From Parcubacteria group bacterium LiPW_15 (GTDB taxonomy: Bacteria > Patescibacteriota > Minisyncoccia > UBA6257 > 2-01-FULL-56-20): a stretch of 64,000 nt of DNA. The notes beneath the pieces are model-generated. The model saw only the letters and a program-made list of their open reading frames with translations. It was not told the DNA's origin and ran no database searches. Location: positions 69,139 to 133,138 of the forward strand of contig VMER01000001.1 of the NCBI GenBank assembly GCA_007375645.1, written 5' to 3'. Both the position numbers and the translations under genes were made by a program. This document shows, piece by piece, positions 5,810 to 63,749 of this stretch. Numbering within the stretch: position 1 is the first letter of the stretch; each line of letters begins with the position of its first letter.

Positions 5810-6289
5810 ATGACACACAATAAAGCGGAAAGGACAGTGGTCTTGATAAAACCGGATGCGCTCCAGAGAGCGCTTGTGGGCGAAATTATAAAACGCTTCG
5901 AACAGAAGGGGCTCAAGATCGTTGCCCTGAAGCTCATGGAGCTTGGCGACGCAATTCTCAGCGAACATTACAGCCACCACAAAGAAAAGCCGTTTTTCCC
6001 GAAACTTAAATCATTTATGATGCAGGCTCCGATCGTGGCTATGGTCCTTGAGGGAATTGAGGCTATATCCGTAGTCAGAATGATCGCCGGAAAAACCCAG
6101 GGAAGAGAGGCGGATATGGGAACCATCCGCGGAGATCTTTCCATGTCCACCCAGGCGAACATTGTCCACTCCTCTGATTCAAAAGAAACCGCCGAGGCGG
6201 AAATAAAAAGATTTTTCAAAGAAAATGAGATAATCGATTACGTCCACGGGAACTTTAATTTCGTCTACGCGGAGGAGGAAAGGGAATAG
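5810..6289 (+). CDS. ndk: nucleoside diphosphate kinase
   Basis: RTVVLIKPDA, NIVHSSDS, SD taggaggg upstream. Confidence 0.9.
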   Translation: MTHNKAERTVVLIKPDALQRALVGEIIKRFEQKGLKIVALKLMELGDAILSEHYSHHKEKPFFPKLKSFMMQAPIVAMVLEGIEAISVVRMIAGKTQGREADMGTIRGDLSMSTQANIVHSSDSKETAEAEIKRFFKENEIIDYVHGNFNFVYAEEERE

Positions 6290-6359
6290 GCCTTGTCTGC
6301 GGGAATTTTTTTGTATATAATTTTCGCCGATCATCACAACTCAAAGGAAGGAGGGCAAA

Positions 6360-6641
6360 ATGCCTTTTGTTGCGCAGGAAAAACTTCCCTCTGGCGAAGA
6401 GCTCATCGCGAGAGCGGTGAGCGATCTCGACGATTGTAATGTTCGCGCGGAGGGGCAGTATTCCGTGATCCTGACCCTGAAGGACGGATCCAAATTCCGT
6501 CTCCTTCCCACAAACGACAACTGGGTGCGCCTGGGCAGGGAAAGGGTTTCCCATTTCGTGGAGCGCTCGAACACTCAATACACCTTTTTTGACATGGTTT
6601 TCTTTCCCTCCAACGAGAGAGCCTCCTTCCACCTTCATTAA
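6360..6641 (+). CDS. hypothetical small protein (93 aa)
   Basis: own extended -10 tttttgTATATAAT at about 6316, SD ggaaggaggg 8 nt before ATG, hairpin plus T-tract downstream. Confidence 0.5.
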   Translation: MPFVAQEKLPSGEELIARAVSDLDDCNVRAEGQYSVILTLKDGSKFRLLPTNDNWVRLGRERVSHFVERSNTQYTFFDMVFFPSNERASFHLH

Positions 6642-6698
6642 GAGAGGCAGATGATCCAAGCCCCCATTCCCGCAAGGAACGGGGGATTTTTCTATAAA

Positions 6699-7427
6699 TT
6701 ATTTCTGTTCCGCTTTGGAGAAAGCTTTCACTATCGCGTCCATATCTCCTTCTAGTATTTTCTCAATATTGTGCCATTTCTTTCCGATGCGGTGATCCGT
6801 GATGCGGTCATCCGGGAAGTTATAAGTGCGGATCTTTTCGGAACGGTCTCCGGAACCCACGAGTTCGTGTCTCGAGGCGCCGGCCGCGGCCATTTCTTTT
6901 TGCATTTGTTCGTCCCGCAGTTTGGTGGCTAGAAGGTTTAAGGCTTTTTCGCGGTTCGCGCTCTGCGAACGTTCGGCGCGGGAGAAAACCACAATGCCGC
7001 TAGGTTTATGGAGCATCCGGACTGCAGTTTCAACTTTGTTGACGTTTTGCCCTCCTGGGCCTCCGGCGCGTTGAAAAGTCACCTCCAAGTCTCCCTGGTT
7101 GATATGCACCTCCTTGGCTTCTACTTCTTTTAAAACGATAACCGAGGCGGTAGAGGTGTGAACGCGTCCGCTCTTTTCCGTTTTCGGCACTCTCTGTACC
7201 CGATGCACTCCGGATTCCTGTTTTAATGCGTCATATGCTCCGGCACCGGCAATTTCCGCGACGAAGGATTTATATCCATAGAGCGAGGTTTCGTTGGAGT
7301 CCATTATGTTGAAGGCCCAACCGCGTTTTGCGGCATAGCGCTGATACATTCTGGCGAGATCACCCGCAAAAAGAGAGGCCTCATCGCCTCCGGCTCCAGC
7401 GCGAATTTCTAATATAACCTTATCCAT
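6699..7427 (-). CDS. prfA: class I peptide chain release factor, RF1-type, lacking N-terminal domain 1
   Basis: starts at [13 protein letters not shown] (domain 2); [17 protein letters not shown] (PxT region), GGQ in [26 protein letters not shown]; in-frame stop 3 codons upstream of ATG; no SD. Confidence 0.7.
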
Positions 7428-7472
7428 AGTGAGTTAATTTTAGTCGAAATATATTTTCTGGGCAAACAAAAA

Positions 7473-7498
7473 CCCGGACAGTCCATGGACTGTCCGGG
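7473..7498. terminator. palindromic hairpin cccggacagtccatggactgtccggg plus T-tract; terminator of rpmE
   Basis: perfect 26-nt palindrome; minus strand followed by TTTTTGTTT; copy with one mismatch at 14216-14241. Confidence 0.55.
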
Positions 7499-7508
7499 TT
7501 AGCAACTG

Positions 7509-7757
7509 CTACTTTGCTTTCTTTACGCGAACCTTCTTTGCTTTCGGTTCAGCTGCTTTGGAGCGGCGGGTCTTAAAGCGTTCCAGGCGGCCGGCAACGT
7601 CAAGCATTTTTTCTTCGCCAGTGAAGAATGGGTGACATTTGGAGCAGATTTCCACTTTTATCTCATTCTTGGTGGCGCCGACCGTGAAGGAATTGCCGCA
7701 GGCGCAGAGTACCTTAGCTTTGGGGAAGTATTCGGGATGAATTTCTTTTTTAGCCAT
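7509..7757 (-). CDS. rpmE: 50S ribosomal protein L31
   Basis: [31 protein letters not shown]. Confidence 0.85.
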
Positions 7758-11593: not shown

Positions 11594-11766
11594 TATCTTC
11601 ACGTGCGGACATCGGTCCGTCCGTTTGTTTCTTTGACATGCTAATAGGTAAAGGTTCAATAAAAAAGAGAGTTTTTTAGTTGTTCCAATTGTGTTTTAAA
11701 ATTGCCTCAAAATTTATTTTGAGAGCGAATCTGGGAGAAGCCTTCGGGCTACTCTAAGATTTTTAT

Positions 11767-13300
11767 GAGGATTTGATCCTGGTCCAGGATGAACGCTGGC
11801 GGTGTGGATAAGGCATGCAAGTCGAGCGGAACTAATTTTGAAGAAGTTGAGATTACATCAAGGCGACGGATTTATTAGTTTAGCGGCGAACGAGTTAGTA
11901 ACACCCTAGTCACGTACCCCGAAGTCAGAGATAGTCCGCCGAAAGGCGGGGTAATACCTGATATTGTCGCAAGACGAAAGCCGCAAGGCGCTTCGGGATC
12001 GGCTTAGGTCCGATCAGCTAGTTGGTAAGGTAACGGCTTACCAAGGCTATGACCGGTAGGGGAGGTGAGAGCCTGACCCCCAACGACGAGACTGAGACAC
12101 GGCTCGTACTCCTACGGGAGGCAGCAGTCGAGAATATTCGACAATGGGCGAAAGCCTGATCGAGCGACACCGCGTGCAGGATGAAGGCCTTCGGGTCGTA
12201 AACTGCGGTAACAAGACTGCAACTCAAGTGAGCGTCTTGTGAGAAGAGGTGGGTAACTACGTGCCAGCACCAGCGGTAATACGTAGACCTCAAGCGTTAT
12301 CCGGATTTATTGGGCGTAAAGCGCATGTAGGAGGTTTTGTGCGTCCTTGGTTAAAGCCCACCGCTCAACGGTGGAAGTGCCCGGGATACGGCAGAACTAG
12401 AGGGAGTTAGAGGTGAATGGAACCCACGGTGTAGGGGTGAAATCCGTTGATATCGTGGGGAACACCAAAGGCGAAGGCAGTTCACTGGGACTTTCCTGAC
12501 TCTGAGATGCGAAAGCGTGGGGAGCAAAAAGGATTAGATACCCTTGTAGTCCACGCCCTAAACGATGTCTGTTAGCTGTTTCGAGTATCGACCCTCGGGG
12601 TGGCGTAGCTAACGCGTTAAACAGACCGCCTGGGAAGTACGAGCGCAAGCTTAAAACTCAAAGGAATAGACGGGGACTCGCACAAGCGGTGGAACATGAG
12701 GTTTAATTCGACGGTACGCGAGGAACCTTACCAGGGTTTGAAATTCTAGGTGAAAGCCGATGGAAACATTGGCCCTCTCTCAAGGACGCCTAGTTCAGGT
12801 GCTGCATGGTTGTCGTCAGCTCGTGCCGTGAGGCGTTCCCTTAATTGGGGTAACGAGCGCAACCCCTGCCACGTGTTACAAGTGTCACGTGGAACTGCCC
12901 AGCTCCAAGATCGGGATTTTTAATAATCGTGATTTTAGAGCTGGGAGGAAGGAGGGGATGACGTCAAATCCGCATGGCCCTTTGATACCCTGGGCTACAC
13001 TCATGTTACAATGGTCAAGACAGCGGGCTGCCAAGCCGTAAGGCGGAGCCAATCTCTAAAACTTGACCCCAGTTCGGATTGGGGGCTGCAACTCGCCCCC
13101 ATGAAGCCGGAATCGCTAGTAATCGCGGATCAGCAACGCCGCGGTGAATACGTTCTCGAGTCCTGTACTCACCGCCCGTCACGCCAAGGGAGCCGGTAAT
13201 AGGTGAAGTTCGTTTACGCGAATCAGCCTAGGATCGGTGACATGGGCGAAGTCGTAACAAGGCACGCGTAGCGGAAGCTGTGCGTGAATCAATTAAACTA
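11767..13300 (+). rRNA. rrs: 16S ribosomal RNA (not followed by 23S in this window)
   Basis: TTTGATCCTGG..GATGAACGCTGGCGG at 5-prime end, GTGCCAGCACCAGCGGTAATAC, AAACTCAAAGGAATAGACGG, GTCGTAACAAGG near 3-prime end; exact 3-prime terminus uncertain. Confidence 0.9.
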
Positions 13301-13461: not shown

Positions 13462-13866
13462 ATGGAAGAAATCCAGAAGAACATATTAATAGTGGAAGAC
13501 GACCCGTTCTTTTCCATGATCCTCAAGGGACGCATGGAGAAACAAGGGTTTGCTGTTCGCCAGGCTTTTGATGGCGAAGTGGCTCTTACCATGGCTAGGG
13601 AGCAGGCGCCGGATCTTATAATCCTGGACCTTATCATCCCGAAGCTTTCGGGTTTTGAGTTTCTGGAAACTATTTTTTCCGACCCTCAGCTTAACCGGGT
13701 TCCGGTCGTAGTGGCCAGCAATCTCGGTCAGGAGAGCGACATAGAAAAAGCGAAGAGACTTGGAGTATTGGACTATTACGTTAAAGTCCGGACTTCGGTG
13801 GATGACCTCGTTAAAATATTAACGAATATCGTGAACCAAGGTCCGCAAGCGGCGAACCCACAATAG
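13462..13866 (+). CDS. single-domain response regulator receiver (CheY-like)
   Basis: ILIVEDDPFF, DLIILDLIIP, PVVVASN. Confidence 0.75.
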   Translation: MEEIQKNILIVEDDPFFSMILKGRMEKQGFAVRQAFDGEVALTMAREQAPDLIILDLIIPKLSGFEFLETIFSDPQLNRVPVVVASNLGQESDIEKAKRLGVLDYYVKVRTSVDDLVKILTNIVNQGPQAANPQ

Positions 13867-14723: not shown

Positions 14724-14843
14724 TTACCGACCGGGGCCCGCGCCCGGTTTTTTTTGTTGAAATTTACAAAATATTCATTTTTTCGCTGTTTTATATCCGG
14801 CATATGCTATACCTTGAGAGAAATGATATAATTTAGGAAAGAG

Positions 14844-15491
14844 ATGAAGCCGCTTGGAAAAGTAAATCTAAAATGGTCTCCGGATTTTGCTTATGCGTTG
14901 GGCCTTTTGGCGACTGACGGAAATTTATCTCTGGATGGTAGGCACATAGATCTAACTTCTAAAGATAATGAACAACTTGGAAATTTTTTACGGTGCCTAA
15001 AAATAGCTAATAAAATTGGCTCTAAATATTCCGGTTCCGGTAGAAAATATTTTCGAGTACAAATTGGAGACATAAATTTTTACAAATTTCTTCTTAATGT
15101 CGGGTTTATGCCGGCCAAATCCAAAATTATATCTAAATTGGATATTCCGGATAAGTACTTCTTTGATTTTCTCCGCGGCCATTTTGATGGTGATGGAACT
15201 TTTTATTCTTATCGAGATGCGCGCTGGAGGAATAGTTTTATGTTTTACACAGTTTTTGTTTCCGCAAGCATGGCTCATCTAAAATGGCTAAGAAATAAGC
15301 TTTTTGATAACTTAGATATAAGCGGACACATTTCTTCCAGCAAAAATAGAAGCGCGCATGAGCTCAGGTATGCCAAGGCGGAATCATTGAAATTATTACC
15401 GAAGCTGTATTATAATCCATTGGTAATTTGTTTATCCCGAAAGAGAAACAAGGTAGAGGGGGTATTGGCTTCACAGGGTAAAAAATTATGA
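14844..15491 (+). CDS. single-chain LAGLIDADG homing endonuclease, free-standing
   Basis: two LAGLIDADG motifs: LAYALGLLATDGNL and FLRGHFDGDGTF; not inside an rRNA or intron. Confidence 0.8.
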   Translation: MKPLGKVNLKWSPDFAYALGLLATDGNLSLDGRHIDLTSKDNEQLGNFLRCLKIANKIGSKYSGSGRKYFRVQIGDINFYKFLLNVGFMPAKSKIISKLDIPDKYFFDFLRGHFDGDGTFYSYRDARWRNSFMFYTVFVSASMAHLKWLRNKLFDNLDISGHISSSKNRSAHELRYAKAESLKLLPKLYYNPLVICLSRKRNKVEGVLASQGKKL

Positions 15492-15492
15492 G

Positions 15493-17040
15493 TTATATGC
15501 GCGGGTGGCGAAACTGGCAGACGCACATCCTTGAGATGGATGCGCCCGCAAGGGCTTGCAGGTTCAACTCCTGTCCCGCGCACAAGTTGTCAAAAGTAGG
15601 GTTTTCAGCCATTTTTGCGATTATCGAAAATGGTTTTTTGTATTGATATTCCTGCACATTCTGGCTTTTGATAGAAAGGTTCCAAAGTAAATTTTGAGCA
15701 ATAATTCTTCTTTGCTCTGGAGAAGATTCCAAATATTGTTTTTCCTTTTTATTGCTTGATAAAAACAGCTCTTTTGTCGGTTCCAAAGTACTTCCGGGTT
15801 GTCGGTAGTCTGCGCCAAGTTGCTTAAGTTGGGATTCTAGTTCGACTCTCTTGTTGCCTAATTCAAGCAGTTTTTGCCTATAGACGGCTTCGGGCGTTAC
15901 TCCGTCGATAAAACTATCAACCAAGCGAGATTGTTTATCCTGAAGCGATATAAGTTGTTTTTCGATAGATTCCTGAATTGGTTCCATAGACTGACCTTGC
16001 CCGGCAAGTTTCTCTTTTGCGGCTTGATACATAACCTCAATAAGATCTTCACTCAATTGAAGTTTTCTGAGAGCCTCGGCAACAAAGGCATCAAGAGTTT
16101 CTGAGCGCATATACTTCTTATGCTCCACACAATTTCCTCTGCCATTTGTGCAGTAGTAATAATCATGTCCCTTTTTATGGGTGGCAGTTAATGCACAACC
16201 ACAATTGGCACAAGAAAATATTCCTCGCAAATGAAAAAACAATCCTTTGGGTCGCGTTGCCCTAAGTCGCCCGATAAAAACATCTGAGGCACGATCAAAT
16301 AACTCTTTGGAAATTAATGGTTCATGTTTGCCAGGATAATACTTTCCATCCTTTACCATCATTCCGTAATAAAATGGGTTCTTTAGAATCTTTTGAATGC
16401 GCGAGCGATGAACTTTGTTACCCCTACCGCTTCTAAGACCCTGTTTATAAAACAAATCAGTTATGTCTTCTAGGCTATAGTTTCCGGTGGCATAAGTTTC
16501 AAACATCTTTTTTACATACGGAGCCAAGATAGGGTCGTGGAATATGGTTTTGTCCGCTTTATTATTCTTATACCCAAATGGAGCCATTTGAGGCCATCCG
16601 CCGGCTTCAAGCTTTGCTTTGTTACCACGCTTAACGTTCTTAGAGAGGTCATCAATATACTTTTGAGCCATACCAAATTCTAAATACATGAGGATAGAGT
16701 TTTCATCATCTCGCCGGTAAGACTGCGCCGGAGTAATAATCTCTAAGTCATTCTGTTTAATAGCCCATATAAGACCGCCACCATCAATAGGATTCCTAGA
16801 GAGACGATCGAGCTTCCAGCAGACAATGCCTCGAATCTTCTTTTTAGTTACATAATCAAGCATCTGCCCAAATATTGGGCGGCCGGGTGCTTTCGCAGAT
16901 TGAGACTCAGTAAATATTTTTTCAATTTCTAATCCTCGGCGAGCGGCAAATTCTTCAAGCTCTTTTACTTGAGCAGGGATAGATAGAATTTGTCGACCCT
17001 CGTCTTCGGTGCTTTTCCGGCAATAGATAATATATTTCAT
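15493..17040 (-). CDS. large serine recombinase (integrase)
   Basis: N-terminal resolvase domain IYCRKSTEDEGRQ..SIPAQ, recombinase domain, Cys cluster CANCGC..C..C, C-terminal coiled coil; 515 aa. Confidence 0.85.
   Translation of the reverse strand: MKYIIYCRKSTEDEGRQILSIPAQVKELEEFAARRGLEIEKIFTESQSAKAPGRPIFGQMLDYVTKKKIRGIVCWKLDRLSRNPIDGGGLIWAIKQNDLEIITPAQSYRRDDENSILMYLEFGMAQKYIDDLSKNVKRGNKAKLEAGGWPQMAPFGYKNNKADKTIFHDPILAPYVKKMFETYATGNYSLEDITDLFYKQGLRSGRGNKVHRSRIQKILKNPFYYGMMVKDGKYYPGKHEPLISKELFDRASDVFIGRLRATRPKGLFFHLRGIFSCANCGCALTATHKKGHDYYYCTNGRGNCVEHKKYMRSETLDAFVAEALRKLQLSEDLIEVMYQAAKEKLAGQGQSMEPIQESIEKQLISLQDKQSRLVDSFIDGVTPEAVYRQKLLELGNKRVELESQLKQLGADYRQPGSTLEPTKELFLSSNKKEKQYLESSPEQRRIIAQNLLWNLSIKSQNVQEYQYKKPFSIIAKMAENPTFDNLCAGQELNLQALAGASISRMCVCQFRHPRI
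15499..15582 (+). tRNA. tRNA-Leu (anticodon GAG), class II with long variable arm
   Basis: hand-folded: acceptor GCGCGGG/CCCGCGC, D-stem GCG/CGC, anticodon stem CATCC/GGATG with loop TTGAGAT, long variable arm, T-arm GCAGG-TTCAACT-CCTGT, discriminator A. Confidence 0.85.
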
Positions 17041-17792
17041 TGTTTTTGTGGTTCGTATCCTTGAATATATGTTTTCTTTGTAACTTGTCCCAGAAACTGG
17101 TGTTCTCGGCTAAACTCTCTGGCGGGTTTTTTAACAGAATAGCGTTCGGCTAAATAATCCGCAAACTTGTTCCGAATAATCAGATCGGCTGGGAAGCCAC
17201 GTGAGATCCTTAAAAGTCTCATAGCATTAAACATAACTTGGTTTTTGGACTTGGTTACATATTTGCTAATGTAATATGCCAACTTTCCAGAACCGTCAGT
17301 TTTTGTCGCATCCACATAACCCTCTCCCCAAATGCCAGCGAGGATTCTCGTTTTACGTTCGTCACCGATGGAAACAGTCCGTCCACCTTGGCGCGTATCA
17401 CCAAGAGACAACGGCACGTTAAAAATAAGACCATGGAAATGTATTCTTCCTCTTGGGGAGAGTTCGGGAACAAAGAGAGATTCCGCTTTAGGATATTTAG
17501 ATCGCAACCGCACCTGGAAGACGCGAAGTGAATCGTTTGCATATGAGGCATCTGAGGCGTCGCCTTTAAAGGTGAGAGTAACCAACAACGGAGTCCCAAA
17601 TTCTGCAAGGCCAGCAAACACGCGCCGCACACATATTTGTCGAGTCCGCCGAGCATTATCGGGTCGCCTAGCTCCGAATAAAACATGCCTTTTTCTGGGA
17701 GAGTATAAATGTATTTTGGGCGGTTCTTTTTCAAACCATGTGATTTCTGTGAGTTTCCCATTATTTCTAAAGATTGTAGGCATATTTAACAA
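17037..17792 (-). CDS. rolling-circle replication initiator, HUH endonuclease (Rep_1/phiX-A-like)
   Basis: motif I LLVTLTF, motif II RIHFHGLIF (HUH), motif III YYISKYVTKSK (Y-x-x-K-Y-x-x-K); 4-nt overlap with recombinase gene. Confidence 0.7.
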   Translation of the reverse strand: MLNMPTIFRNNGKLTEITWFEKEPPKIHLYSPRKRHVLFGARRPDNARRTRQICVRRVFAGLAEFGTPLLVTLTFKGDASDASYANDSLRVFQVRLRSKYPKAESLFVPELSPRGRIHFHGLIFNVPLSLGDTRQGGRTVSIGDERKTRILAGIWGEGYVDATKTDGSGKLAYYISKYVTKSKNQVMFNAMRLLRISRGFPADLIIRNKFADYLAERYSVKKPAREFSREHQFLGQVTKKTYIQGYEPQKQ

Positions 17793-18068
17793 CTATGAGG
17801 GTATATCAAGTCAGGCGAGGGAATCCCTCCCGCCTTCGGCGGTCGGGATTCCCTCGCGGACTCGGAAGGAAGGGGATAGAAGGCCAAAAAAAAGTCAACC
17901 AGGTCATCCAGGTATTCAAGAGCTTGATCACGGGAAAGAACTAGGTTGTAGTCCCGCTTAAAGATTCTGGTTATCTCGACAATTAGTGGTTCGCTATACT
18001 GCGTCATAAAAAAATAGGCTTTTTCGGAAGCCTATTCTTTTGAGCCGTGATTCACTTTCGTTCGCCGG

Positions 18069-18650
18069 TTAAAGTAGCCTATAAACTGACTTACCTCGCC
18101 ATTCTAGAAGCATGAGACCCGGAGCTTCGTCCTGAAATTTATCGTTAATTGCCCGAACAGTGTCTGAGATTGATTTTCTTGCCTTTTCCTTTTCGCCCGC
18201 TTCCTTACCCACGACTTCTTCATAAAGAACATCCCAGCTTATCGGTGTATTTATTTTCTGGCCGAACATAAATTTAAGAAGATACGCTTGGCGACTATCT
18301 GGTTCAATCTTAATTTCCTTCCCGCCGTAAAAGAGAATTGTCTGGTTCACATCGTAACTAACGCCGTAAACCTTTTCGTTTTTAAGCTCTCCCTTTTTGA
18401 ACTTCTCAAACCTGTCTTTGTCGATATCAAACATATACAACACATCTTCCAAAGCACCCTTTTCATTACTAGTCGGAACATCGGCAGTGTCGAAAAGGCC
18501 AATTATGCCCAAGCCCTTAAGTTCGTAAAGTAGGGCTTCCATATTTTTCGAACGACCCTCTAGAATGCTTACATTCTTGCGGTTCGGGAAATGAATCAAA
18601 AAATTATTGATTTTGCCTATCAGCTCTTGCATTTCGCCACTCATGTTCAT
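18069..18650 (-). CDS. hypothetical protein with C-terminal OmpR/PhoB-type winged-helix
   Basis: C-terminal SISDTVRAINDKF..LLEWRGKSVYRL resembles trans_reg_C. Confidence 0.4.
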   Translation of the reverse strand: MNMSGEMQELIGKINNFLIHFPNRKNVSILEGRSKNMEALLYELKGLGIIGLFDTADVPTSNEKGALEDVLYMFDIDKDRFEKFKKGELKNEKVYGVSYDVNQTILFYGGKEIKIEPDSRQAYLLKFMFGQKINTPISWDVLYEEVVGKEAGEKEKARKSISDTVRAINDKFQDEAPGLMLLEWRGKSVYRLL

Positions 18651-18802
18651 GTTGAAAAAATAGCGGATTTATTGGATAATTTCAATACAACTGAATAACG
18701 GCCTAAACCGCTTAGCGATAGGTGGCATGGTCAAAAAACTTTCGAGGGCATCAAGCTCCTAGTCAGAGCACCCTCGAAAGTCATACCCCGAAAGGAGTAT
18801 GG

Positions 18803-19333
18803 GTGTCGCAAGACATCGCTGGCTGGGAGCTTTATGTTTCTGGCCAAATAAAATACTACATGGACGCAAAGTTTATAAAACATTTAATAAAGGGAAAAAT
18901 CGCCGAGATTATTTTTGAGCAAATGTTTCGTGAATCAGGGAAATATACAATTCTTCATTCCGGCTACGAATACACCCTGCCCGAGCTGGCTCAATATCAG
19001 CATCTTACGGAAGTGAAGGCCGTAATAGAAAATATCAAAAATGCGCCGGATTTCGTATTAATATCACAAGACAAAAAGGAAGTTCACTTGGTGGAGGTCA
19101 AATATCGCGACCCTAGAAGGCCGGAAGACTTGAAAGAAATAGTCGGAAAAACCTTAGAGATTTGGAATCCATCTTGGCTGTTTGTTGCATCACCTGACGG
19201 ATTTTTCTTTGAACCCTGCAACACAGTTTTAAGAAATAACGGGAATATTGAACGAATGTATGCAAGGTGGGTTGACCCTAAAATCCAGGAAGAATACCTC
19301 AAGCTGCTCAACCAATTTGAGCTGAAAGGATAG
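18803..19333 (+). CDS. PD-(D/E)xK-fold nuclease-like protein (start uncertain, ORF opens at 18722)
   Basis: APDFVLI ... VHLVEVKYR (D ... ExK); SD aaaggag 5 nt before in-frame GTG at 18803. Confidence 0.45.
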   Translation: MSQDIAGWELYVSGQIKYYMDAKFIKHLIKGKIAEIIFEQMFRESGKYTILHSGYEYTLPELAQYQHLTEVKAVIENIKNAPDFVLISQDKKEVHLVEVKYRDPRRPEDLKEIVGKTLEIWNPSWLFVASPDGFFFEPCNTVLRNNGNIERMYARWVDPKIQEEYLKLLNQFELKG

Positions 19334-19391
19334 CAATATTGTTGTGCTGACTTAATTTGCCTAGTTGAAAAGCGAGGGGTAGTATTTGGTT

Positions 19392-21011
19392 ATGAGAATT
19401 TCGAAAATAAAAATTACAAACTTTAGGTCTATAAAAGAAGCCGAAATATTACCTACGGGTTTTAACGTTTTTGTTGGTCAGAATAATCACGGGAAAACCA
19501 ATTTTTTTGAAGCCATAGACTGGTTTTTTACTGGGCCCAAAAAAGGAGAAGGTTTGGAAAAAATAAGATTTGGAAGATCTGGCGATGCAGAAATAGCAGT
19601 AGAAATAGAATTTACCGAAGCCCTGGATGGTGCCGAGAAAATGAAAAACGAAGGGAATAAAACAAAGATAAAACAAGCTCTCGGTGAGAACGATACAGTT
19701 TCGGTTCGGCGAAGTAGCTTGGATCCGAAAAAGCGTACCATTTCAATTGGAGGAGTAGAGTTAGAAAAAGCACCAACTGGATTCGATAATGCCTTGAATG
19801 ATTTTTTGCCAACCTTTCAATACGTCAGCACACAAATAAATCCACTTGATGTTGCCAAGTATGGCAAAAACACACCCATTGCAAATATGCTGTCCGGTGT
19901 GTTGTCGGCCATTCTCGAAAAAGATCCAACATACGCAGCTTTTAAAGAACAATTCGATAAGCTATTTACTGCTCCGGGGTCTTTAGTTCGCGTTGAATTA
20001 AACGAACTTAGTAAGCAAGTAAAGGTATATCTCGAAAAACAATTTCCAGATTGTCTGGAAGTAGCCTTTGAGGTATCACAACCAGTTTTTGAGGACTTAC
20101 TTAAAAATTTTGAAACCTCAATAGATGATGGGGTTTATACTAGCGCAGATGAAAAAGGAGACGGGATGCAAAGGGCCTTGATGCTTGCAATCATCCAAAC
20201 CTACGCAGATTTTAGGAGAGAAAACGAGGAAACTAGCAAATTCTTTCTTTTCTTTATTGACGAAGGAGAACTCCACTTGCATCCCACCGCGCAGAGAAAA
20301 CTTAAAAATGCCCTGCTAGAACTGTCTCGAGGTGGTGACCAAATCTTTTTAAACACCCATTCGTCAGTTTTGATTTCTGACGAAACCGAGGGGCAAACGA
20401 TATTCAAAGTTGAAAAAATTAAAAGCGAAACGAGCATTGTTCCCGTAAAGGAAGACGAGAAGCGCTACATAGTATATGAACTGCTTGGCGGTAGTCCAGC
20501 GGATCTTCTTTTGCCCAGAAATTTTCTCATAGTTGAAGGTAAAAGTGAATATGAATTTTTATCTCGTGTGATTGCAAGATTTTATGTGGATAAACCTAAG
20601 GTTCAGATTATTTATGCCGAAGGCAACCATGAGAGACAGCGACAAACAATGGAAGGAATAAATAAGGTTTATGTGCCGCTTTTTGCAAATCCGGTATACA
20701 GAGATAAGCTAATTATCCTTTGCGATACCCCAAGCGCAGAGGCGGCAACGAGCTTTGAAACTTTTAAAAGTACATACCCAGCCCTGACTTCAAACGGACA
20801 ACTTATTGTTAACCCTCTGCCCAGCCTGGAGGAATACTATCCATCTCCTTGGAAAAAAACAGATGTCGAGGTTAAAGCTATGGACGCAGACAAAAATGCG
20901 AAACTATTGCTGGCCAGAGAGGTTGGAAGTGGCATAACTCAGGCACAATTTGAAACGGATATGCCAATTGTCTTCCAAGCTCTCCAAGATTGTTGGTCGA
21001 AGGCCTACTAA
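19392..21011 (+). CDS. OLD-family ATP-dependent nuclease (ABC ATPase fused to Toprim)
   Basis: Walker A GQNNHGKTN, Walker B FFLFFIDEGELHLHP, H-loop FLNTHS, C-terminal Toprim-like LIVEGKSEYEF. Confidence 0.7.
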   Translation: MRISKIKITNFRSIKEAEILPTGFNVFVGQNNHGKTNFFEAIDWFFTGPKKGEGLEKIRFGRSGDAEIAVEIEFTEALDGAEKMKNEGNKTKIKQALGENDTVSVRRSSLDPKKRTISIGGVELEKAPTGFDNALNDFLPTFQYVSTQINPLDVAKYGKNTPIANMLSGVLSAILEKDPTYAAFKEQFDKLFTAPGSLVRVELNELSKQVKVYLEKQFPDCLEVAFEVSQPVFEDLLKNFETSIDDGVYTSADEKGDGMQRALMLAIIQTYADFRRENEETSKFFLFFIDEGELHLHPTAQRKLKNALLELSRGGDQIFLNTHSSVLISDETEGQTIFKVEKIKSETSIVPVKEDEKRYIVYELLGGSPADLLLPRNFLIVEGKSEYEFLSRVIARFYVDKPKVQIIYAEGNHERQRQTMEGINKVYVPLFANPVYRDKLIILCDTPSAEAATSFETFKSTYPALTSNGQLIVNPLPSLEEYYPSPWKKTDVEVKAMDADKNAKLLLAREVGSGITQAQFETDMPIVFQALQDCWSKAY

Positions 21012-21027
21012 TCTAAAGTTTCTAATT

Positions 21028-21357
21028 ATGAGAATAAAAGATCTATTTAAATCAACCGGCATTTCGCAATCATTCGGAGGCGTAGCTCCTCGATTGGATA
21101 AAAATAATTGTCGGGTTGAAAATAAGACCAAAAATGAAGACTCGGTGCTACTTCGTTTAAAAAGGATGTCAGACGGAGAGGAGGGAAATGCATATTTGAG
21201 GGTTCAAGAACAATTTTCAAGCATAACCCCGCAATTGCTTGGTTGGGCTTTTAATAGCAATAAAATTATTGGGCTTTCTCTAAACGAGCTGGACGACTTT
21301 GAAACAGGCCTTGAAATAGAAAATTTACAAGGACGACTTCGATTAATTACTGATTAA
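21028..21357 (+). CDS. hypothetical protein
   Basis: ORF only; no SD. Confidence 0.3.
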   Translation: MRIKDLFKSTGISQSFGGVAPRLDKNNCRVENKTKNEDSVLLRLKRMSDGEEGNAYLRVQEQFSSITPQLLGWAFNSNKIIGLSLNELDDFETGLEIENLQGRLRLITD

Positions 21358-54347: not shown

Positions 54348-55610
54348 ATGAGTTTTAATTTCGTATTCCAAAGTATTTTGGACTTTTTCGCTTTATATTG
54401 GTGGATAATCGTTCCAATAATCTTTTTGCCCCTTTATAGCTCAACCGCGCTCTTTGTAACCCACGAAAAGAGGAAACGCGAGAATAAGTGGGTAATTTTG
54501 GATATTAAAATTTCCAGGGAGACCAAGAAAACCCCGCAGGCGATGGAGCAGATACTCGAAACAATGAACGGCTGGGGGACTTTGCCCTCGAGGAAACCAA
54601 CGGAATGGGCGTCGCTTGAACTTATAAGCATCGGCGGCGAGATCCATTTTATGATCCGCATACTTGAGAAATACAAGAATCTTTTAGAATCCACGTTTTT
54701 CTCCTTTTATCAGGACGTAGACATAAAAGAAGTGGATGATTATATGGATCATGTGCCTTCGAACACGGCCCAGCTTTACGCGCGGGATCTGAATGTCTGG
54801 GGCACGGAACTTATCCTCGGAAAAGAAGGCGCGTACCCGATAAAATCCTATAAAGAGTTTACGAGCGGCGGCGAGGGCAAAGAATTCGACCCGATGTCCG
54901 TGTTCACGGAAATAATGGGCCGGCTTTTGCCGGACGAATTCTTGGGAGTCCAGATGATCCTTATGCCCATAAGCACGAAAAGCGTTCGGGAGAAATACAA
55001 GCCGCTTCTTGAAAAATTGAAGGCAAAGCCCAAGGAGGGCGAGACCTTGGATACCACCACCCTGAAACTGACTTTGGGAACCGACGCGAAAAAAGTAAAA
55101 GTAGTTGAGGAAAATTTGTCCAAGCCTTTTTTCAACACGCTCATCCGAGCGATATATGTTGCGCCCCGATCTTCTTTCCGCGAGAAATACGCGAAGCAGG
55201 GGATAGTGAGCTCCTTCAATCAATACGCGTCTCCGGATCTGAATTCATTCAAGAAAAATTCGCAAACCGAGATCGGCGATGTGCTTCCGAATCCGGACAA
55301 ACTTTTTGCTCTCTTTCCAAAAAGCCGGGATGAAGCCAGGAAGGAGCGGATATTGCACACCTACCGGCATCGGGACGTTCCTCCGGTAAGCGCCATGGGC
55401 AAACTTATAAGCTCGATGTTTTTTCATACAAATAATGCTTCGAGATTTGTGGAACTGTCCACGGAATCTTTGGCCACCGTTTTCCATCTGCCGACCACTG
55501 TGGTTTTGACGGCGCCGTTCATGCAGAGAGTCGAAAGCAGGAAGGTCGGTCCGCCTCAAGGGCTCGCGATATTCGGCGGGAACGAAGATCTGGAAATATT
55601 CGAAACATGA
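54348..55610 (+). CDS. hypothetical protein with N-terminal TM (420 aa)
   Basis: first gene of a three-gene operon with 4-nt overlaps. Confidence 0.45.
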   Translation: MSFNFVFQSILDFFALYWWIIVPIIFLPLYSSTALFVTHEKRKRENKWVILDIKISRETKKTPQAMEQILETMNGWGTLPSRKPTEWASLELISIGGEIHFMIRILEKYKNLLESTFFSFYQDVDIKEVDDYMDHVPSNTAQLYARDLNVWGTELILGKEGAYPIKSYKEFTSGGEGKEFDPMSVFTEIMGRLLPDEFLGVQMILMPISTKSVREKYKPLLEKLKAKPKEGETLDTTTLKLTLGTDAKKVKVVEENLSKPFFNTLIRAIYVAPRSSFREKYAKQGIVSSFNQYASPDLNSFKKNSQTEIGDVLPNPDKLFALFPKSRDEARKERILHTYRHRDVPPVSAMGKLISSMFFHTNNASRFVELSTESLATVFHLPTTVVLTAPFMQRVESRKVGPPQGLAIFGGNEDLEIFET

Positions 55611-56113
55611 ACCTAGATTTTTCAAATCTCACCTTGCCTCAGATATTCGAATACATCCGCATCGGGATAATCATTTTTGATTTTCTGTTGGTCGCGGCGA
55701 CTATTCATATATTCATGAAAGCGATAAAGATAAGGCCTCGGTTCAGGGCCGATATTAACCGGGCGCCGGTCTTAACCATCCGCAAAGAGGAATTGCTCGA
55801 AAAATGGAACGCGATAATGGAAAAATACACCGACGGCAAACCGGACAATCTGAAGATCGCGGTTATCCAGGGCGACGCCATGATCGACGGCATTCTTAAA
55901 AACGCCGGTCTCAAAGGCGAGCATATGGCCGATCGTTTGGATAATATCGAGCCGGGCGAGCTCAAGAGTTTCGAAGACCTTTGGCGTTCGCACAAGATCC
56001 GCAACAACATCGTTCACAACGAAGCCTTCGTGCTTAACAAGCAGATCGCGGAAACGGCTATCAAAGGTTACGAAAAGTTTTTAAAAGAGCTGGGGGTCTT
56101 AACTTCACAATAA
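55607..56113 (+). CDS. hypothetical protein with single N-terminal TM (168 aa)
   Basis: ATGA overlap with upstream gene. Confidence 0.45.
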   Translation: MNLDFSNLTLPQIFEYIRIGIIIFDFLLVAATIHIFMKAIKIRPRFRADINRAPVLTIRKEELLEKWNAIMEKYTDGKPDNLKIAVIQGDAMIDGILKNAGLKGEHMADRLDNIEPGELKSFEDLWRSHKIRNNIVHNEAFVLNKQIAETAIKGYEKFLKELGVLTSQ

Positions 56114-56114
56114 A

Positions 56115-57656
56115 ATGGCAAAAGAAAAAAAAGACGTAGTATTTTTCGCGAAAACGGACTTCCGGGACGCCGACCGAATTTTCGGTATTAAGCGCGCCGA
56201 CCGGAGACAGCATATGTATGTGATAGGAAAGACGGGAACCGGTAAAACCACTTTGCTTCGCAACATGGTCATTCAAGACATCGCGAACGGCGAGGGTCTT
56301 TGCGTGGTGGACCCGCACGGAGAGTTCGTCGAAGATCTTTTGAAAATGATCCCGAAAGACAGATTGGACGATGTGGTCTACTTTAACCCGGGCGACCCCG
56401 ATTTTCATGTCGGCTTTAATCCTTTGGAGATAAGCGACCCGAGGTATAAGCATCTTGTGGCTTCCGGACTGATGGCCATCTTTACCAAGATCTGGGCTGG
56501 CGTTTGGTCGCCTAGAATGGAATATATTTTGAACAACTGCGTCTTGGGCCTTTTGGATACTCCGGGGACAACTCTCTTGGGAATACCGAGGCTTCTGGTG
56601 GACAAGGAATTCAGGCAAAAAGTAGTCGCGAATATTCAGGATCCGGTGGTCAAAGCTTTCTGGTCCACGGAATACGAAGCCTGGAAAGACCAATATCGAA
56701 ACGAGGCCATTGCCCCTATCCAAAACAAAGTAGGACAATTTTTGTCCGTTACTTTGGTCAGGAATATTGTCGGACAGCAAAAGAGCACCGTGGATTTCTT
56801 CGAGATAATGAACAGCGGAAAGATCCTCTTGGTTAACGTGTCTAAGGGCAGGATCGGAGAAGATAACTCCGCGCTTTTGGGCGCGATGGTTATCACCAAG
56901 ATACAGCTCTCCGCGATGGATCGCATCCGTGTTCCCGAAGAAGAGCGCGTGGACTTCTACTTATATGTCGACGAATTTCAAAACTTCGCGACCGATTCTT
57001 TCGCCAATATCCTTTCCGAGGCGCGCAAATACCGTCTTTGTCTTACCATGGCGCATCAATACATCGGCCAGCTGGTGACGGATGTTTCCACAAAAGTTCG
57101 GGATGCTATTTTCGGTAACGTGGGAACCCAAATGATCATGAGAGTCGGTGCGGCTGATGCGGATTTTCTGGCCAAGGAATTGGAGCCGGAATTCGGCGCG
57201 CAGGACATGGTGAATCTTCCGAATCGCAGAATATATCTAAAGCTTATGGTGGACGGCGTGACTTCCCGTTCGTTTTCCGCCGCCACTTTGCCTCCGATAA
57301 AAACTCAATTTGAAGCTGCTGCGGAAGAAGACGTTATTAAAACCTCAAGGAAACGTTATGCCCGGCCTCGTTACGCGGTAGAGGAAGAGATAAGCGAGTG
57401 GAGCGAGGTTATGGGAGGCCCCCGAGGCGGGTCGCCAGCGCCGAGACAGGAAGCTCCTAGGCAAATGATTCCTTCCGAAGAACGAAGAGAAGCCCCGACT
57501 CAAACAATTTCCTTGAAAGAACTTGAAGGCAAAGAAACTTTCCCGTCCAAAGAAAAGGAACGGAAACCGGTTGAACCGTCGGATATTGATTCGGTAAGAA
57601 AAATGATAAGCGATGCAATGTCCGCTCCGAAAGACGAAGACGAAAATGAAAAATAA
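56115..57656 (+). CDS. P-loop ATPase of TraD/TrwB/VirD4-like (type IV coupling protein or HerA-like) family
   Basis: Walker A VIGKTGTGKTTLL, Walker B LYVDEFQNF, acidic C-terminal tail. Confidence 0.45.
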   Translation: MAKEKKDVVFFAKTDFRDADRIFGIKRADRRQHMYVIGKTGTGKTTLLRNMVIQDIANGEGLCVVDPHGEFVEDLLKMIPKDRLDDVVYFNPGDPDFHVGFNPLEISDPRYKHLVASGLMAIFTKIWAGVWSPRMEYILNNCVLGLLDTPGTTLLGIPRLLVDKEFRQKVVANIQDPVVKAFWSTEYEAWKDQYRNEAIAPIQNKVGQFLSVTLVRNIVGQQKSTVDFFEIMNSGKILLVNVSKGRIGEDNSALLGAMVITKIQLSAMDRIRVPEEERVDFYLYVDEFQNFATDSFANILSEARKYRLCLTMAHQYIGQLVTDVSTKVRDAIFGNVGTQMIMRVGAADADFLAKELEPEFGAQDMVNLPNRRIYLKLMVDGVTSRSFSAATLPPIKTQFEAAAEEDVIKTSRKRYARPRYAVEEEISEWSEVMGGPRGGSPAPRQEAPRQMIPSEERREAPTQTISLKELEGKETFPSKEKERKPVEPSDIDSVRKMISDAMSAPKDEDENEK

Positions 57657-58281
57657 GCTCGAGGTAGTTATTCTAACTGCCTTTCCGAAGATATTCGATT
57701 CTTATTTGAACGAGTCGCTTTTTAAGCGCGCTATTGCCAAAAAGATATTGAAATTTAAGATAGTGAACTTGCGTGATTTCGCGACCGGTAAACACAAGAA
57801 AATCGACGATCGGCCGTTCGGCGGGGGACCGGGAATGGTCTTGATGGTAGAGCCGATAACCAAGGCGCTTAAATCGCTAGGCGCGAAAAATAAAACCAGA
57901 ACTATTTTGTTTTCCACCCGGGGTAAAAAGTTAGATGCGGCGATGGCGAAGCGACTTTCCAAATATGACCGGCTTATCCTAATTTCGGGCCGCTACGAGG
58001 GCGTGGACGAACGAGTGGCGGAAGCGTTGGCGGACGAAGAAGTGTCTATCGGAGATTTTGTGCTTTCGGGAGGCGAACTTCCCGCCTTGGTGCTTTCCGA
58101 ATCTGTCGCGCGATTCCTACCCGGATTCTTGGGCAAACTCGAATCGCTCGAGGAACTTAAAGGTTCATATCCCGTTTATACTCGTCCCGAGGAGTTCAAG
58201 CTCGGGAAAAAGAAGCTAAAAGTCCCGCAGGTCCTGCTTTCGGGAGATCATAAAAAGATCGAGGAGTGGAGAAGAAAATAA
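57646..58281 (+). CDS. trmD: tRNA (guanine37-N1)-methyltransferase TrmD
   Basis: VVILTAFPKIF, DDRPFGGGPGMV, SIGDFVLSGGE. Confidence 0.85.
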   Translation: MKNKLEVVILTAFPKIFDSYLNESLFKRAIAKKILKFKIVNLRDFATGKHKKIDDRPFGGGPGMVLMVEPITKALKSLGAKNKTRTILFSTRGKKLDAAMAKRLSKYDRLILISGRYEGVDERVAEALADEEVSIGDFVLSGGELPALVLSESVARFLPGFLGKLESLEELKGSYPVYTRPEEFKLGKKKLKVPQVLLSGDHKKIEEWRRK

Positions 58282-60951: not shown

Positions 60952-61524
60952 ATGCTTCTCTCGGTTCTCGCCGCGTTGTTCCAAGTGTCCGCTTACGTGG
61001 CATATTTCGCTCAGGTGAGCGCCGGCGGATCAATTCCGAACCCGGCTTCCTGGAGCGTGTGGGCGCTTCTTTCCATCCTGAATGCCCTGACGTTCTGGAG
61101 GGCTTCGAAGGATGCGCTCGCAACAGCGCAGTTCTTCACCGGATCAGTCGCCTGTGTCATGGTTTGGACTTACTCGCTCATGACGGGGAAGTTCGTTCCG
61201 TTGGACACAAAAGCGTGGCTCGTTCTCATCTTCTGCTTCGTGGCTTGTGCGATCTGGTATGTGAAGCGAAGCGCGATTTACGCCAATCTCGTGATTGCCG
61301 GCATCTTCACCGTTTCATCGGTGCCGACTTTCGTGGGCGTGTGGCGAAACAGCCATGTGGAACAGCCGCTTGCGTGGATGTTCTGGACAACCGCATTTGC
61401 GGTTACCACGATCAACGTGCTTCGGCGAACCGATCGAACAAAACCGCGCTGGTGGTTCATCATGGCTATGCCGATCTATGGCCTCGTCTTCCACGGCCTG
61501 ATCGCCATCTGCGCTGCACGATAA
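60952..61524 (+). CDS. hypothetical 6-TM membrane protein, GC-rich
   Basis: SD aaaggaggag. Confidence 0.5.
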   Translation: MLLSVLAALFQVSAYVAYFAQVSAGGSIPNPASWSVWALLSILNALTFWRASKDALATAQFFTGSVACVMVWTYSLMTGKFVPLDTKAWLVLIFCFVACAIWYVKRSAIYANLVIAGIFTVSSVPTFVGVWRNSHVEQPLAWMFWTTAFAVTTINVLRRTDRTKPRWWFIMAMPIYGLVFHGLIAICAAR

Positions 61525-62271: not shown

Positions 62272-62296
62272 CAAGACAGACGCAGCAGTTCTTCAT

Positions 62297-62378
62297 GGCC
62301 GTTCGGGAAACCGAGCGGCCTTTTTCTTTTGTAAAATTAGAACTTGTTATACTTTTATACATAATGGCGGCGGAAATA
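62297..62378 (+). repeat. DR-B: terminator hairpin ggccgttcgggaaaccgagcggcc plus T-tract and about 55 nt homologous to DR-A; overlaps comEC promoter region
   Basis: see DR-A. Confidence 0.55.
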
Positions 62379-63749
62379 GTTTTTTCGCTTTTCTCGGGAT
62401 TTATCTTAGGCGTTGTCGCGAGCGGTTCGGGAGTTAACATCTATACCGGCATTGTCGGATTTTTTATCGTAATCGCCGCCAGCTTTTTCTTGAGGCGAAA
62501 TCTTACAAAATACTTCGCCGTAGCTCTAGCCGCGTTTCTTTTGGGCTTCTTTTATTTTGTTTTATATGGGAAATTAGCCAGTGCGAAATATCCTAGTTTT
62601 GGAGTGAAAATCGCTATGGAGGTTATTGTCACGGGAGAAACGAGGATAAGCGGGACAGTTCAGCGGACAAAAGCCAAGCTGCTGCCACCATACGGCGGGG
62701 CGATAGATCTGGTTTCAAACGAAGGAATCCTTTTGGAATATGGCGACAGGATAAAATTTGAAGCCGCGCTTAACCCGGATAAGTATTCCACTCGTCCGGC
62801 GGCGAGAGTATACGCCCCGGAAATTGTTTCCAAAAATAACGGTTCGGGGCTCAAGCAATCGCTTCTGGGACTAAAAACAAATCTGCTCAAATCTCTCAAA
62901 GAAAATCTATCACCGCCCTCGGCCGCGCTCATGGGCGGACTTCTCTTGGGCGATAGGAATAGCTTTTCCGCGGACTTTAAAACCGCGATGAAGGGGAGCG
63001 GGACGACCCACCTGGTCGCGCTTTCGGGGTTCAATATAACGATCCTTGTAAACGCCATAGCGCTGGCCCTTGGCTCATTTTTGTCCCGCAAAATGCGCTT
63101 CGCGCTTTCGATAATGATCATCATCCTTTTTATCGTAATGGTCGGGGCGGAAGCGTCGGTCGTTCGGGCGGGGATTATGGGCGCGCTTCTCTTAATTTCC
63201 CAAGAGAGCGGAAGAATATATTCGCCGAGAAACGCAATAGCTTTTGCCGGATTTGCGATGACCGCTTGGGATCCGAATAACGTTTTCGATATCGGATTTA
63301 TCCTTTCTTTTGTGAGCCTAATGGGAATCGTATATATTCTGCCGGCCGTTAAAAACACATTTTTGCCGGGGAAAAATCCGAAAGGAATCGAGGAAGCGGC
63401 GCTTATGACCGTTTCCGCCCAGGCGGCGGTGTTGCCGATAGCCATAAAAACCTTCGGCGGGTTTTCTTTAACCGCGATAATTTCCAATTCGCTTATCACC
63501 GGTTTTGTTCCATACGCGATGCTTTCCGGATTTTTGGTTGCTGTCGCCGATTTCTTTTCGGCCGCCCTCTCATTTTTCTTCGGTTTTTTCGCCGAGATAG
63601 GTATGAAATATTTTATCTTTATAATCGAATTCTTCTCGCGGGTTCGTCTGCCCTTCGGAGATTTCCTAAACATTCCTTACGCCGCGGCAATTTATTACAT
63701 ATGTCTTATAATTTTTGTATATGCAGGGATTACCAAAGTTAAGCAATAG
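62364..63749 (+). CDS. comEC: ComEC/Rec2 competence channel, membrane domain only (ORF opens at 62295 inside the terminator)
   Basis: many TM helices, HLVALSGFNITIL (ComEC signature); stop at 63747-63749. Confidence 0.8.
   Translation: MAAEIVFSLFSGFILGVVASGSGVNIYTGIVGFFIVIAASFFLRRNLTKYFAVALAAFLLGFFYFVLYGKLASAKYPSFGVKIAMEVIVTGETRISGTVQRTKAKLLPPYGGAIDLVSNEGILLEYGDRIKFEAALNPDKYSTRPAARVYAPEIVSKNNGSGLKQSLLGLKTNLLKSLKENLSPPSAALMGGLLLGDRNSFSADFKTAMKGSGTTHLVALSGFNITILVNAIALALGSFLSRKMRFALSIMIIILFIVMVGAEASVVRAGIMGALLLISQESGRIYSPRNAIAFAGFAMTAWDPNNVFDIGFILSFVSLMGIVYILPAVKNTFLPGKNPKGIEEAALMTVSAQAAVLPIAIKTFGGFSLTAIISNSLITGFVPYAMLSGFLVAVADFFSAALSFFFGFFAEIGMKYFIFIIEFFSRVRLPFGDFLNIPYAAAIYYICLIIFVYAGITKVKQ

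Follow-up and report, generated by a model that had tools for sequence, protein, structure and literature searches.

A conserved release factor 1 lacking domain 1 in Parcubacteria, probably a housekeeping prfA with its N-terminal segment deleted in place

The groundwater Parcubacteria group bacterium LiPW_15 encodes a peptide chain release factor 1 (RF1) that lacks the whole of domain 1. We analysed a 64-kb stretch of its DNA, called the window throughout, in which this 242-residue protein, composed of domains 2, 3 and 4 only, is specified by the minus-strand prfA ortholog at 6699..7427. We consider it likely that the gene is the housekeeping prfA of a large Parcubacteria (Paceibacteria-type) clade, in which a domain-1 segment of about 315 nt has been deleted in place to leave a minimal working RF1. 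We infer that the truncated protein is catalytically active, independent of RF3 and the sole RF1 of the organism. The initial annotation had posed a choice between a minimal RF1 used by the lineage and a truncated paralog. Conservation of the truncation, purifying selection, the position of the gene downstream of rpmE and the use of TAG stop codons together favour a lineage-wide minimal RF1.

The open reading frame (ORF) begins with ATG and ends with TAA (6701-6699). RF1 profiles match it only from about position 105 onward, as expected if it starts at the domain-2 boundary, where the initial annotation had placed its beginning. The NCBIfam RF1 equivalog NF001859 aligns over positions 105-343 of 347 with 359.4 bits (cut-off 400), and TIGR00019 over positions 113-352 of 361 with 343.7 bits (cut-off 423.25). 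Both scores fall below their cut-offs because roughly 105 N-terminal positions are absent; with E = 1.8e-107 against the RF1 profile, a chance match is not a concern. The Pfam PCRF match is likewise confined to the C-terminal half of the profile (positions 101-194 of 194), and the GGQ peptidyl-hydrolase domain is complete (Pfam RF-1, PF00472, positions 3-116 of 116, E=8.6e-36). Judged from profile coverage, 105-112 N-terminal residues are missing, and profile positions 1-104, which represent the N-terminal helical domain 1, have no counterpart. Profiles of related factors score lower: RF2 gives 220 bits, PrfH (TIGR03072) 82.9 bits (cut-off 166.65) and ArfB (NF006718) 50.3 bits (cut-off 100), the last aligning to residues 105-139 only.

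The codon-recognition superdomain 2/4 is present with its PxT tripeptide and decoding residues. In a tblastn comparison, the protein is 47% identical to residues 112-349 of E. coli RF1. Residues 107-344 of T. thermophilus RF1 align to it without gaps, and identity to the E. coli and T. thermophilus proteins is 47-48% across residues ~107-349. The ungapped alignment pairs G13/E16, Q78, P81-x-T83, H90, T91 and G125-G126-Q127 with known-site positions, which we take to be the contacts to U1, A2 and the third base and the catalytic loop. These RF1 stop-codon contacts and the loop were reportedly described by Laurberg et al. in 2008. G13/E16, Q78, P81/T83, H90/T91 and the GGQ residues are all invariant in 43 relatives. 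As the initial annotation had read from the sequence, the PxT 'anticodon' tripeptide (P81-K82-T83, 7179..7187, minus strand, of RF1 type), the GGQ motif (7047..7055, minus strand) and the C-terminal motif are all retained. The middle residue of PxT varies across relatives (K, A, R, E, S or V), as is also usual in RF1 generally; human mtRF1a likewise carries PKT.

An AlphaFold2 model returns a complete domain 2/3/4 fold (mean predicted local distance difference test 82.7, predicted template modelling score 0.77), with residues 3-10 forming the first beta-strand. It superposes on free RF1 (1ZBT) with a template modelling (TM) score of 0.87 at 2.2 Å and on pre-accommodated, ribosome-bound RF1 (6ORL) with a TM score of 0.86. 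Low-confidence stretches are limited to the GGQ loop and residues 186-191, the latter being where we expect the switch loop. At the level of sequence, every RF1 hallmark that we tested is present except domain 1 and, consequently, an equivalog-level score.

Domain 1 does not appear to be encoded nearby in any other form. We built a hidden Markov model (HMM) of domain 1 from 57 full-length loci and ran it over every stop-to-stop frame with 25 codons or more, both in the window and in all the loci collected. Each full-length locus yields its domain 1 (E 1e-12 to 1e-41). No match at E<=10 appears in the 64-kb window, whatever the frame, nor in the flanks of 13 truncated relatives (up to 10 kb per side, contig permitting). 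A split gene close by, a frameshifted exon and an extension upstream are thereby excluded, in agreement with the earlier statement that no frameshift or neighbouring ORF can supply the domain.

There is also little DNA in which such an extension could lie. An in-frame TAA, noted in the initial annotation, stands three codons 5' of the start codon (7434..7436, minus strand). Directly upstream on the same strand is rpmE (7509..7757), which encodes ribosomal protein L31 of 82 residues (Pfam Ribosomal_L31, E=9e-26) and ends in TAG (7511-7509). The spacer was described earlier as 81 nt from the rpmE terminator to the ATG; the length is exact (7428-7508), but it runs from the rpmE stop codon, and the terminator lies inside it. 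This intrinsic terminator (7461..7500, minus strand) consists of a hairpin at 7500-7471, with a 13-bp stem (8 GC pairs) and a 4-nt loop, followed by a T-run. It shares the spacer with a promoter-like site (7437..7465, minus strand; 9/12 consensus matches) made up of a -35 element TTGCCC (7465-7460), a 17-nt spacing and a -10 element TAAAAT (7442-7437).

The position of the gene argues that it is prfA itself. Among 27 Patescibacteria-type loci with an upstream flank available (L003-L014, L016, L020, L026, L030-L032, L036, L040, L041, L045, L053, L064, L068, L076 and L086), 14 have rpmE upstream of prfA on the same strand, as in LiPW_15. We measured the interval between the rpmE end and the point where the domain 2-4 match begins. 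It is 69-478 nt in these loci, with L053 at 624 nt, and differs with the form of the N-terminus: 327-448 nt where the protein is full length (L012, L014, L020, L026, L031 and L041, besides L053), 254-478 nt for intermediate forms (L013, L016, L030, L045, L064, L068 and L076) and 69-118 nt for truncated ones (the window, L001, L002, L007, L008, L011 and L036). Because the interval has shrunk by about the coding length of domain 1, we read the gene as a prfA ortholog from which domain 1 was deleted in place. Such positional orthology disfavours an accessory paralog.

The truncation is conserved well beyond this genome. The initial annotation had proposed an alignment with RF1 proteins of the candidate phyla radiation (CPR), and the comparison places the same N-terminus across a large Parcubacteria clade. 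In a collection of 5.8 billion proteins, the best 120 clusters are 72-100% identical to the query and all 236-286 residues long, none being full length; those with names are assigned to Liptonbacteria, Wolfebacteria, Jorgensenbacteria, Paceibacterota, Parcubacteria and Patescibacteria. The proteins start 2-6 residues ahead of the motif (I/V)I(L/I)E(I/V)RAGAGGDEA, and two long outliers carry unrelated extensions from over-called starts. In a library of representatives at 50% identity, the next relatives are two truncated proteins of 242 and 232 residues (58-63% identity), followed by ordinary full-length RF1s of 345-367 residues that are at most 55% identical and align from residue ~105-115. 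Across the representatives of a 1.84-billion-protein library and the loci from GTDB species genomes, the closest full-length RF1s found are at most 56% identical. Two representatives in the 50% library, P0121 (477 residues) and P0122 (481 residues), contain an internal duplication of about 100-120 residues; they are probably misassemblies that rank as top matches since both copies score. The identical protein is present in NCBI, JGI, ENA and Logan assemblies, where it is annotated 'Peptide chain release factor 1', and its contig measures 481,644 bp.

The pattern of substitution points to a gene in use. Among 43 family members, 82 positions are invariant. Compared with the 89%-identical Liptonbacteria ortholog (L086), 102 codons are identical, 111 differ only synonymously and 27 change the amino acid. 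More distant pairs give nonsynonymous divergence (dN) of 0.08-0.33 with saturated synonymous divergence (dS); we report raw codon counts rather than dN/dS ratios, dS being saturated in all pairs but one. By these counts the truncated prfA is under strong purifying selection and is a functional gene, contrary to the relaxed constraint that had been raised as a possible refutation.

To describe how N-termini vary, we scanned one genome per GTDB species and measured at the DNA level, in the resulting 80 loci, how far the frame stays open 5' of domain 2. Only 2-33 codons are open in L003-L006, L008-L011, L032 and L036; among these are Lipton-, Jorgensen- and Nomurabacteria as well as a closed chromosome of 829 kb (OY970354.1). 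L007 has 82 open codons yet is truncated: its first ATG directly follows a terminator-like hairpin, 5 codons ahead of domain 2. Intermediate lengths occur in a Microgenomates genome (L016, 58 codons) and in L013 (Daviesbacteria), L029 (Kaiserbacteria, at a contig edge), L030, L045, L064, L068 and L076 (74-82 codons). All other phyla and the other Patescibacteria, including Morani- and Peregrinibacteria, have ~98-110 or more open codons and are full length; L017, L021 and L049 are cut by contig ends and were left unscored.

In the intermediate forms, domain 2 is preceded by no more than 58-81 residues. For four of these (L013, L016, L029 and L030) the domain-1 HMM sees the C-terminal half alone (positions ~55-101), and the segment that in E. 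coli holds the RF3-contacting helix α2 is undetectable by this model. In the 21-23-residue forms (L011, L036 and protein P0227), domain 1 is replaced by a short Trp-rich peptide, as in MDWQEWKK..., MSDQQYDWKQWQ... and MDYFEWKK.... In a rough neighbour-joining tree of the domain 2-4 region, built without support values, the fully truncated proteins form one clade, to which the 23-residue form L011 is sister. L036, the 21-residue form from Nomurabacteria, is nested in a clade of 74-81-residue forms, and the Microgenomates forms (58-77 residues) are placed elsewhere. Residual N-termini measure 0-9, 21-33, 58 or 74-81 residues depending on the clade, and full domain 1 is retained by Morani- and Peregrinibacteria. 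From this tree, domain 1 seems to have eroded independently at least two or three times among Patescibacteria.

The truncated prfA also lacks a recognizable Shine-Dalgarno (SD) sequence. This had been noted initially as a trait of the gene; it holds, and it extends to the genome as a whole. About 6 of the 46 gene starts in the window have an SD-like motif, and two look canonical (ndk at 5810 and an ORF at 60952). The 16S rRNA gene (11761-13299, plus strand) ends at ~13280-13299 with ...GUGAAUCAAUUAAAC, compared with ...UGGAUCACCUCCUUA in E. coli, and lacks the CCUCC anti-SD core; as read from the gene, the 3' end is ...GTGAATCAATTAAAC against ...TGGATCACCTCCTTA in E. coli. Because the 16S rRNA is without an anti-SD, the missing SD at prfA is a property of the organism.

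The -10 box of prfA stops 9 nt before the ATG, and rpmE shares the layout, with TATAAT 10 nt before its ATG. Such an arrangement suggests a leaderless or near-leaderless prfA mRNA, which would leave no space for codons ahead of the ATG. Of the 46 gene starts, 12 (e.g. those at 7427, 7757, 13462, 14844, 22111, 23584, 25154, 33228, 36136, 43366, 44583 and 54348) have a -10-like hexamer that begins between -12 and -17. With about a quarter of starts preceded by a TATAAT-like box and no SD, the sequence suggests that leaderless mRNAs are widespread in this genome.

Stop-codon usage bears on the need for the protein. In 72 crude, non-overlapping ORFs of the window, TAA ends 40, TAG 17 and TGA 15; rpmE and ndk both end in TAG. 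As all three triplets serve as stops, the code is standard. RF1 activity is needed because TAG stops are in use, and with a standard code an RF2 must be encoded elsewhere.

In canonical RF1, helix α2 of domain 1 touches RF3 (its domain 3), and helix α3 touches the N-terminal domain of L11 at the stalk base (PMC3677378). The initial annotation had named RF3 and the L7/L12 stalk as the partners of domain 1; the first stands, and the second should read L11 rather than L7/L12 itself. E. coli RF1 without domain 1 keeps its codon specificity and its in-vitro release activity, according to the account of Mora et al. (2003) and Vestergaard et al. (2005) in PMC1586002. In the same account, the shortened factor works in vivo, and its stimulation of nucleotide exchange on RF3 is abolished.

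By analogy, the most likely mechanism is normal termination at UAA and UAG without the L11 and RF3 contacts. The gene would be transcribed from its own promoter immediately 5' of the ATG, and its mRNA is probably leaderless. The RF1 so produced combines the codon-reading superdomain 2/4 with the GGQ domain 3. This protein probably enters the A site at UAA or UAG, where the usual RF1 residues would read the codon. The GGQ loop would then move into the peptidyl-transferase centre, and the peptide would be released as by a normal RF1. Because the helical domain that touches the L11 N-terminal domain and RF3 is absent, departure would proceed without RF3-driven recycling, either spontaneously or during recycling by RRF and EF-G. 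Substitutions specific to the clade in domains 3 and 4 are, speculatively, candidates for compensation.

Several points weigh against a minimal housekeeping RF1. Our RF2 searches, which covered proteins, viral contigs and metagenome DNA, recovered no RF2 attributable to Patescibacteria. A second, full-length prfA outside the 64-kb window is formally possible, if unlikely. To our knowledge, the RF3-less bacteria Bacillus, Mycobacterium and Mycoplasma keep a full-length RF1, and loss of RF3 alone is therefore insufficient to explain why domain 1 is dispensable. RF3 is in fact missing from 72 of 191 surveyed genomes, those three genera included (PMC1780047). E. coli RF1 is inactive on ribosomes without L11, according to a reviewer comment in PMC1586002 that cites Tate et al. 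(1984), and losing the L11-contacting domain may call for compensation.

A broader form of the proposal is that termination has been remodelled across the Paceibacteria-type lineage, with no RF3, a similarly reduced RF2, an altered L11/H43-44 stalk base and minimal two-module class-I factors that recycle by another route. We regard this only as a tentative possibility, somewhat doubtful at present. If it is true, the repeated erosions would make these bacteria a natural series in which to study the role of domain 1. Neither the window nor the relatives' loci sequences examined contain an L11 gene.

The RF2 searches returned material of several kinds. With E. coli RF1 and RF2 as tblastn queries, no other release-factor-like locus was found in the 64-kb window, and no second release-factor gene in the flanks of 82 further loci (up to 10 kb per side of prfA). 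Protein searches across phyla with a masked RF2 consensus (X at variable positions) returned only RF2s from outside Patescibacteria. We also scanned metagenome DNA for a pattern of -10 box, ATG, short spacer and GGTExxDWA; among the matches listed there was no convincing RF2 truncation, and almost all were AT-rich full-length RF2s, many on marine-metagenome contigs. One RF2 labelled 'Patescibacteria' (P0443/L085; GCA_035646975.1, contig DASROJ010000039.1) was rejected: its neighbours are ExbB/ExbD, Lnt, SPOR and PrmA, typical of Gram-negative bacteria, and the contig is probably mis-binned. Short RF2 calls of 248-260 residues were also rejected as truncations, since they start at a conserved internal Met. 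Upstream of the two that we checked (P0346 and P0406) are 339 and 513 nt without any gene call, and such proteins look like gene-calling artefacts of the prfB frameshift region. Separately, phage-like IMG/VR contigs of 40-396 kb and GC 0.26-0.34 (L096-L104 and L110) carry RF2 homologs of ~319-375 residues, in which domains 2-4 are 37-45% identical to bacterial RF2 and the N-terminal domain is present and very divergent.

We weighed four other explanations of the locus. The protein could be a specialised extra paralog, a rescue or stress factor like PrfH or ArfB, with a full-length RF1 encoded elsewhere; the window covers 64 kb of a contig that is 481 kb or longer, and PrfH sets a precedent for a release-factor paralog without domain 1 (PMC1586002; PMC6514570). 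Yet the gene occupies the ancestral rpmE-prfA slot, has no adjacent rtcB and keeps the RF1 PxT with all other RF1 decoding residues. Its profile scores (359 bits for RF1 against 83 for PrfH and 50 for ArfB, with rounded cut-offs of 167 and 100) and the identity ceiling of 56% to any full-length RF1 recovered, with 0 of the 120 best clusters full length, also make this very unlikely. Alternatively, a separate small helical protein, encoded beyond the window, could provide domain 1 in trans. As described in PMC1586002, domain 1 is an autonomous, flexibly attached helical bundle, which suits a split gene, and our search covered local DNA only. The blank domain-1 HMM in the window and around prfA in the 13 truncated relatives speaks against this reading, as do the intermediates with 21-81 residues, which resemble progressive erosion rather than fission. 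We hold it to be likewise very unlikely.

The remaining two explanations are effectively refuted. The true start might lie upstream, reached through a non-canonical start codon, a programmed frameshift or readthrough, or concealed by an assembly error at 7428-7508. The family does offer a precedent for recoding, since prfB uses a programmed frameshift. But the in-frame TAA lies three codons 5' of the ATG, the 81-nt spacer is taken up by the rpmE terminator and the promoter-like site, and no upstream frame encodes domain-1-like sequence. The assembly error, which the initial annotation had named as a possible refutation, is excluded because the same boundary recurs in independent JGI, ENA, NCBI and Logan assemblies, among them the closed 829-kb chromosome. 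Least credible of all is a decaying pseudogene remnant. A reduced genome and scores under the NCBIfam equivalog cut-offs would fit such a remnant, but the ORF is intact, the 82 positions invariant in 43 relatives include every catalytic and decoding motif, synonymous changes outnumber amino-acid changes by 111 to 27, and the TAG stops require an RF1.

The preferred reading, a housekeeping prfA that has lost domain 1, sets the protein apart from systems already described. It shares domains 2-4, PxT, GGQ, the fold (TM 0.86-0.87) and the slot downstream of rpmE with canonical RF1 (TIGR00019/NF001859; T. thermophilus 4V63 and E. coli), but lacks domain 1 (~105 residues) together with the conserved 'LLP(K/R)DPND' linker. 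In domains 3 and 4, the clade has ILHKPTG in place of ITHxPTG, SSR in place of xCQ and DHRIGKKWH in place of DHRIGLTLY. Its architecture is that of the engineered domain-1 deletions of E. coli RF1 and RF2 (Mora, Zavialov, Ehrenberg and Buckingham, 2003, Mol Microbiol 50:1467, as presented in PMC1586002). According to that source, those were artificial mutants with a growth cost in an RF3-bearing host, whereas the present form is natural, conserved and apparently the sole RF1 of its lineage.

Two families of reduced factors are also close. PrfH/RFH (TIGR03072, RtcB-linked) is likewise a natural class-I homolog without domain 1, with a codon-recognition-like domain and GGQ (PMC1586002; PMC6514570), and the release-factor diversity survey of Burroughs and Aravind gives it as the form without the 'GTPase-interacting domain'. 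PrfH is, however, a sporadic accessory paralog with an altered 'anticodon' region and an obligatory upstream rtcB; the truncated RF1 scores below the PrfH cut-off, its PxT is genuine, no rtcB lies beside its gene, and by position that gene is the prfA ortholog. ArfB, ICT1 and C12orf65 (GGQ domain plus basic tail) are reduced superfamily members that also act without domain 1. They lack codon-reading domains and are codon-independent, whereas the truncated RF1 keeps its codon-reading superdomain and falls outside the ArfB profile.

Our full-text literature searches, together with the Burroughs and Aravind survey, turned up no account of a natural housekeeping RF1 without domain 1, and the searches gave none of a truncated RF1 in CPR/Patescibacteria. 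We know of no well-studied bacterial RF1 that has lost the domain, those of Mycoplasma and many RF3-less bacteria included. A large and diverse clade whose only detectable RF1 lacks domain 1, with sister lineages that show partial deletions, is a natural experiment, and indicates that the domain is dispensable for life in some ribosomal contexts. Margus et al. left open how termination proceeds without RF3 (PMC1780047). Lineages with and without domain 1 could be compared for L11, 23S H43/H44, RF2 and RF3 to learn what makes the domain dispensable, and the truncated protein is a ready-made minimal RF1 for biochemistry. There is also a practical consequence. NCBI records name these proteins 'PCRF domain-containing protein', and RF1 may be scored as missing from Patescibacteria in completeness and marker-gene analyses because the genes fail RF1 equivalog thresholds.

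Downstream of prfA lie a small uncharacterized ORF, ndk and a NUDIX gene. The 400 nt 3' of prfA (window 6255-6675) contain overlapping small ORFs of 134 and 90 residues on the minus strand and 93 residues on the plus strand. Neither the 134-residue nor the 93-residue ORF has a Pfam match, and the strand called varies with the gene caller (L001 versus L002). The 16S rRNA gene is not followed by a 23S rRNA gene, the next gene, at 13462, being that of a response regulator, which means that the rRNA genes are unlinked. RNase P RNA of class A lies at 2200-2563 on the minus strand, with 120.6 bits, modestly above the gathering score of 100.

An apparent mobile-element region spans ~14800-21100, with a LAGLIDADG-like ORF (14844-15491), genes for a large serine recombinase (15493-17040, minus strand) and a Rep-like protein (17037-17792, minus strand), a LOOT RNA (18700-18817) and the gene of an AbiEii/OLD-type AAA ATPase (19386-21011). 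A tRNA-Leu predicted by ARAGORN at 15499-15583 overlaps the recombinase ORF and lacks Rfam support. Further along are an ATPase resembling type IV secretion coupling proteins (TrwB/TraG domains; 56115-57656), the ORFs adjoining it (54348-56113 and 57613-58281) and a ComEC-type competence protein (62295-63749).

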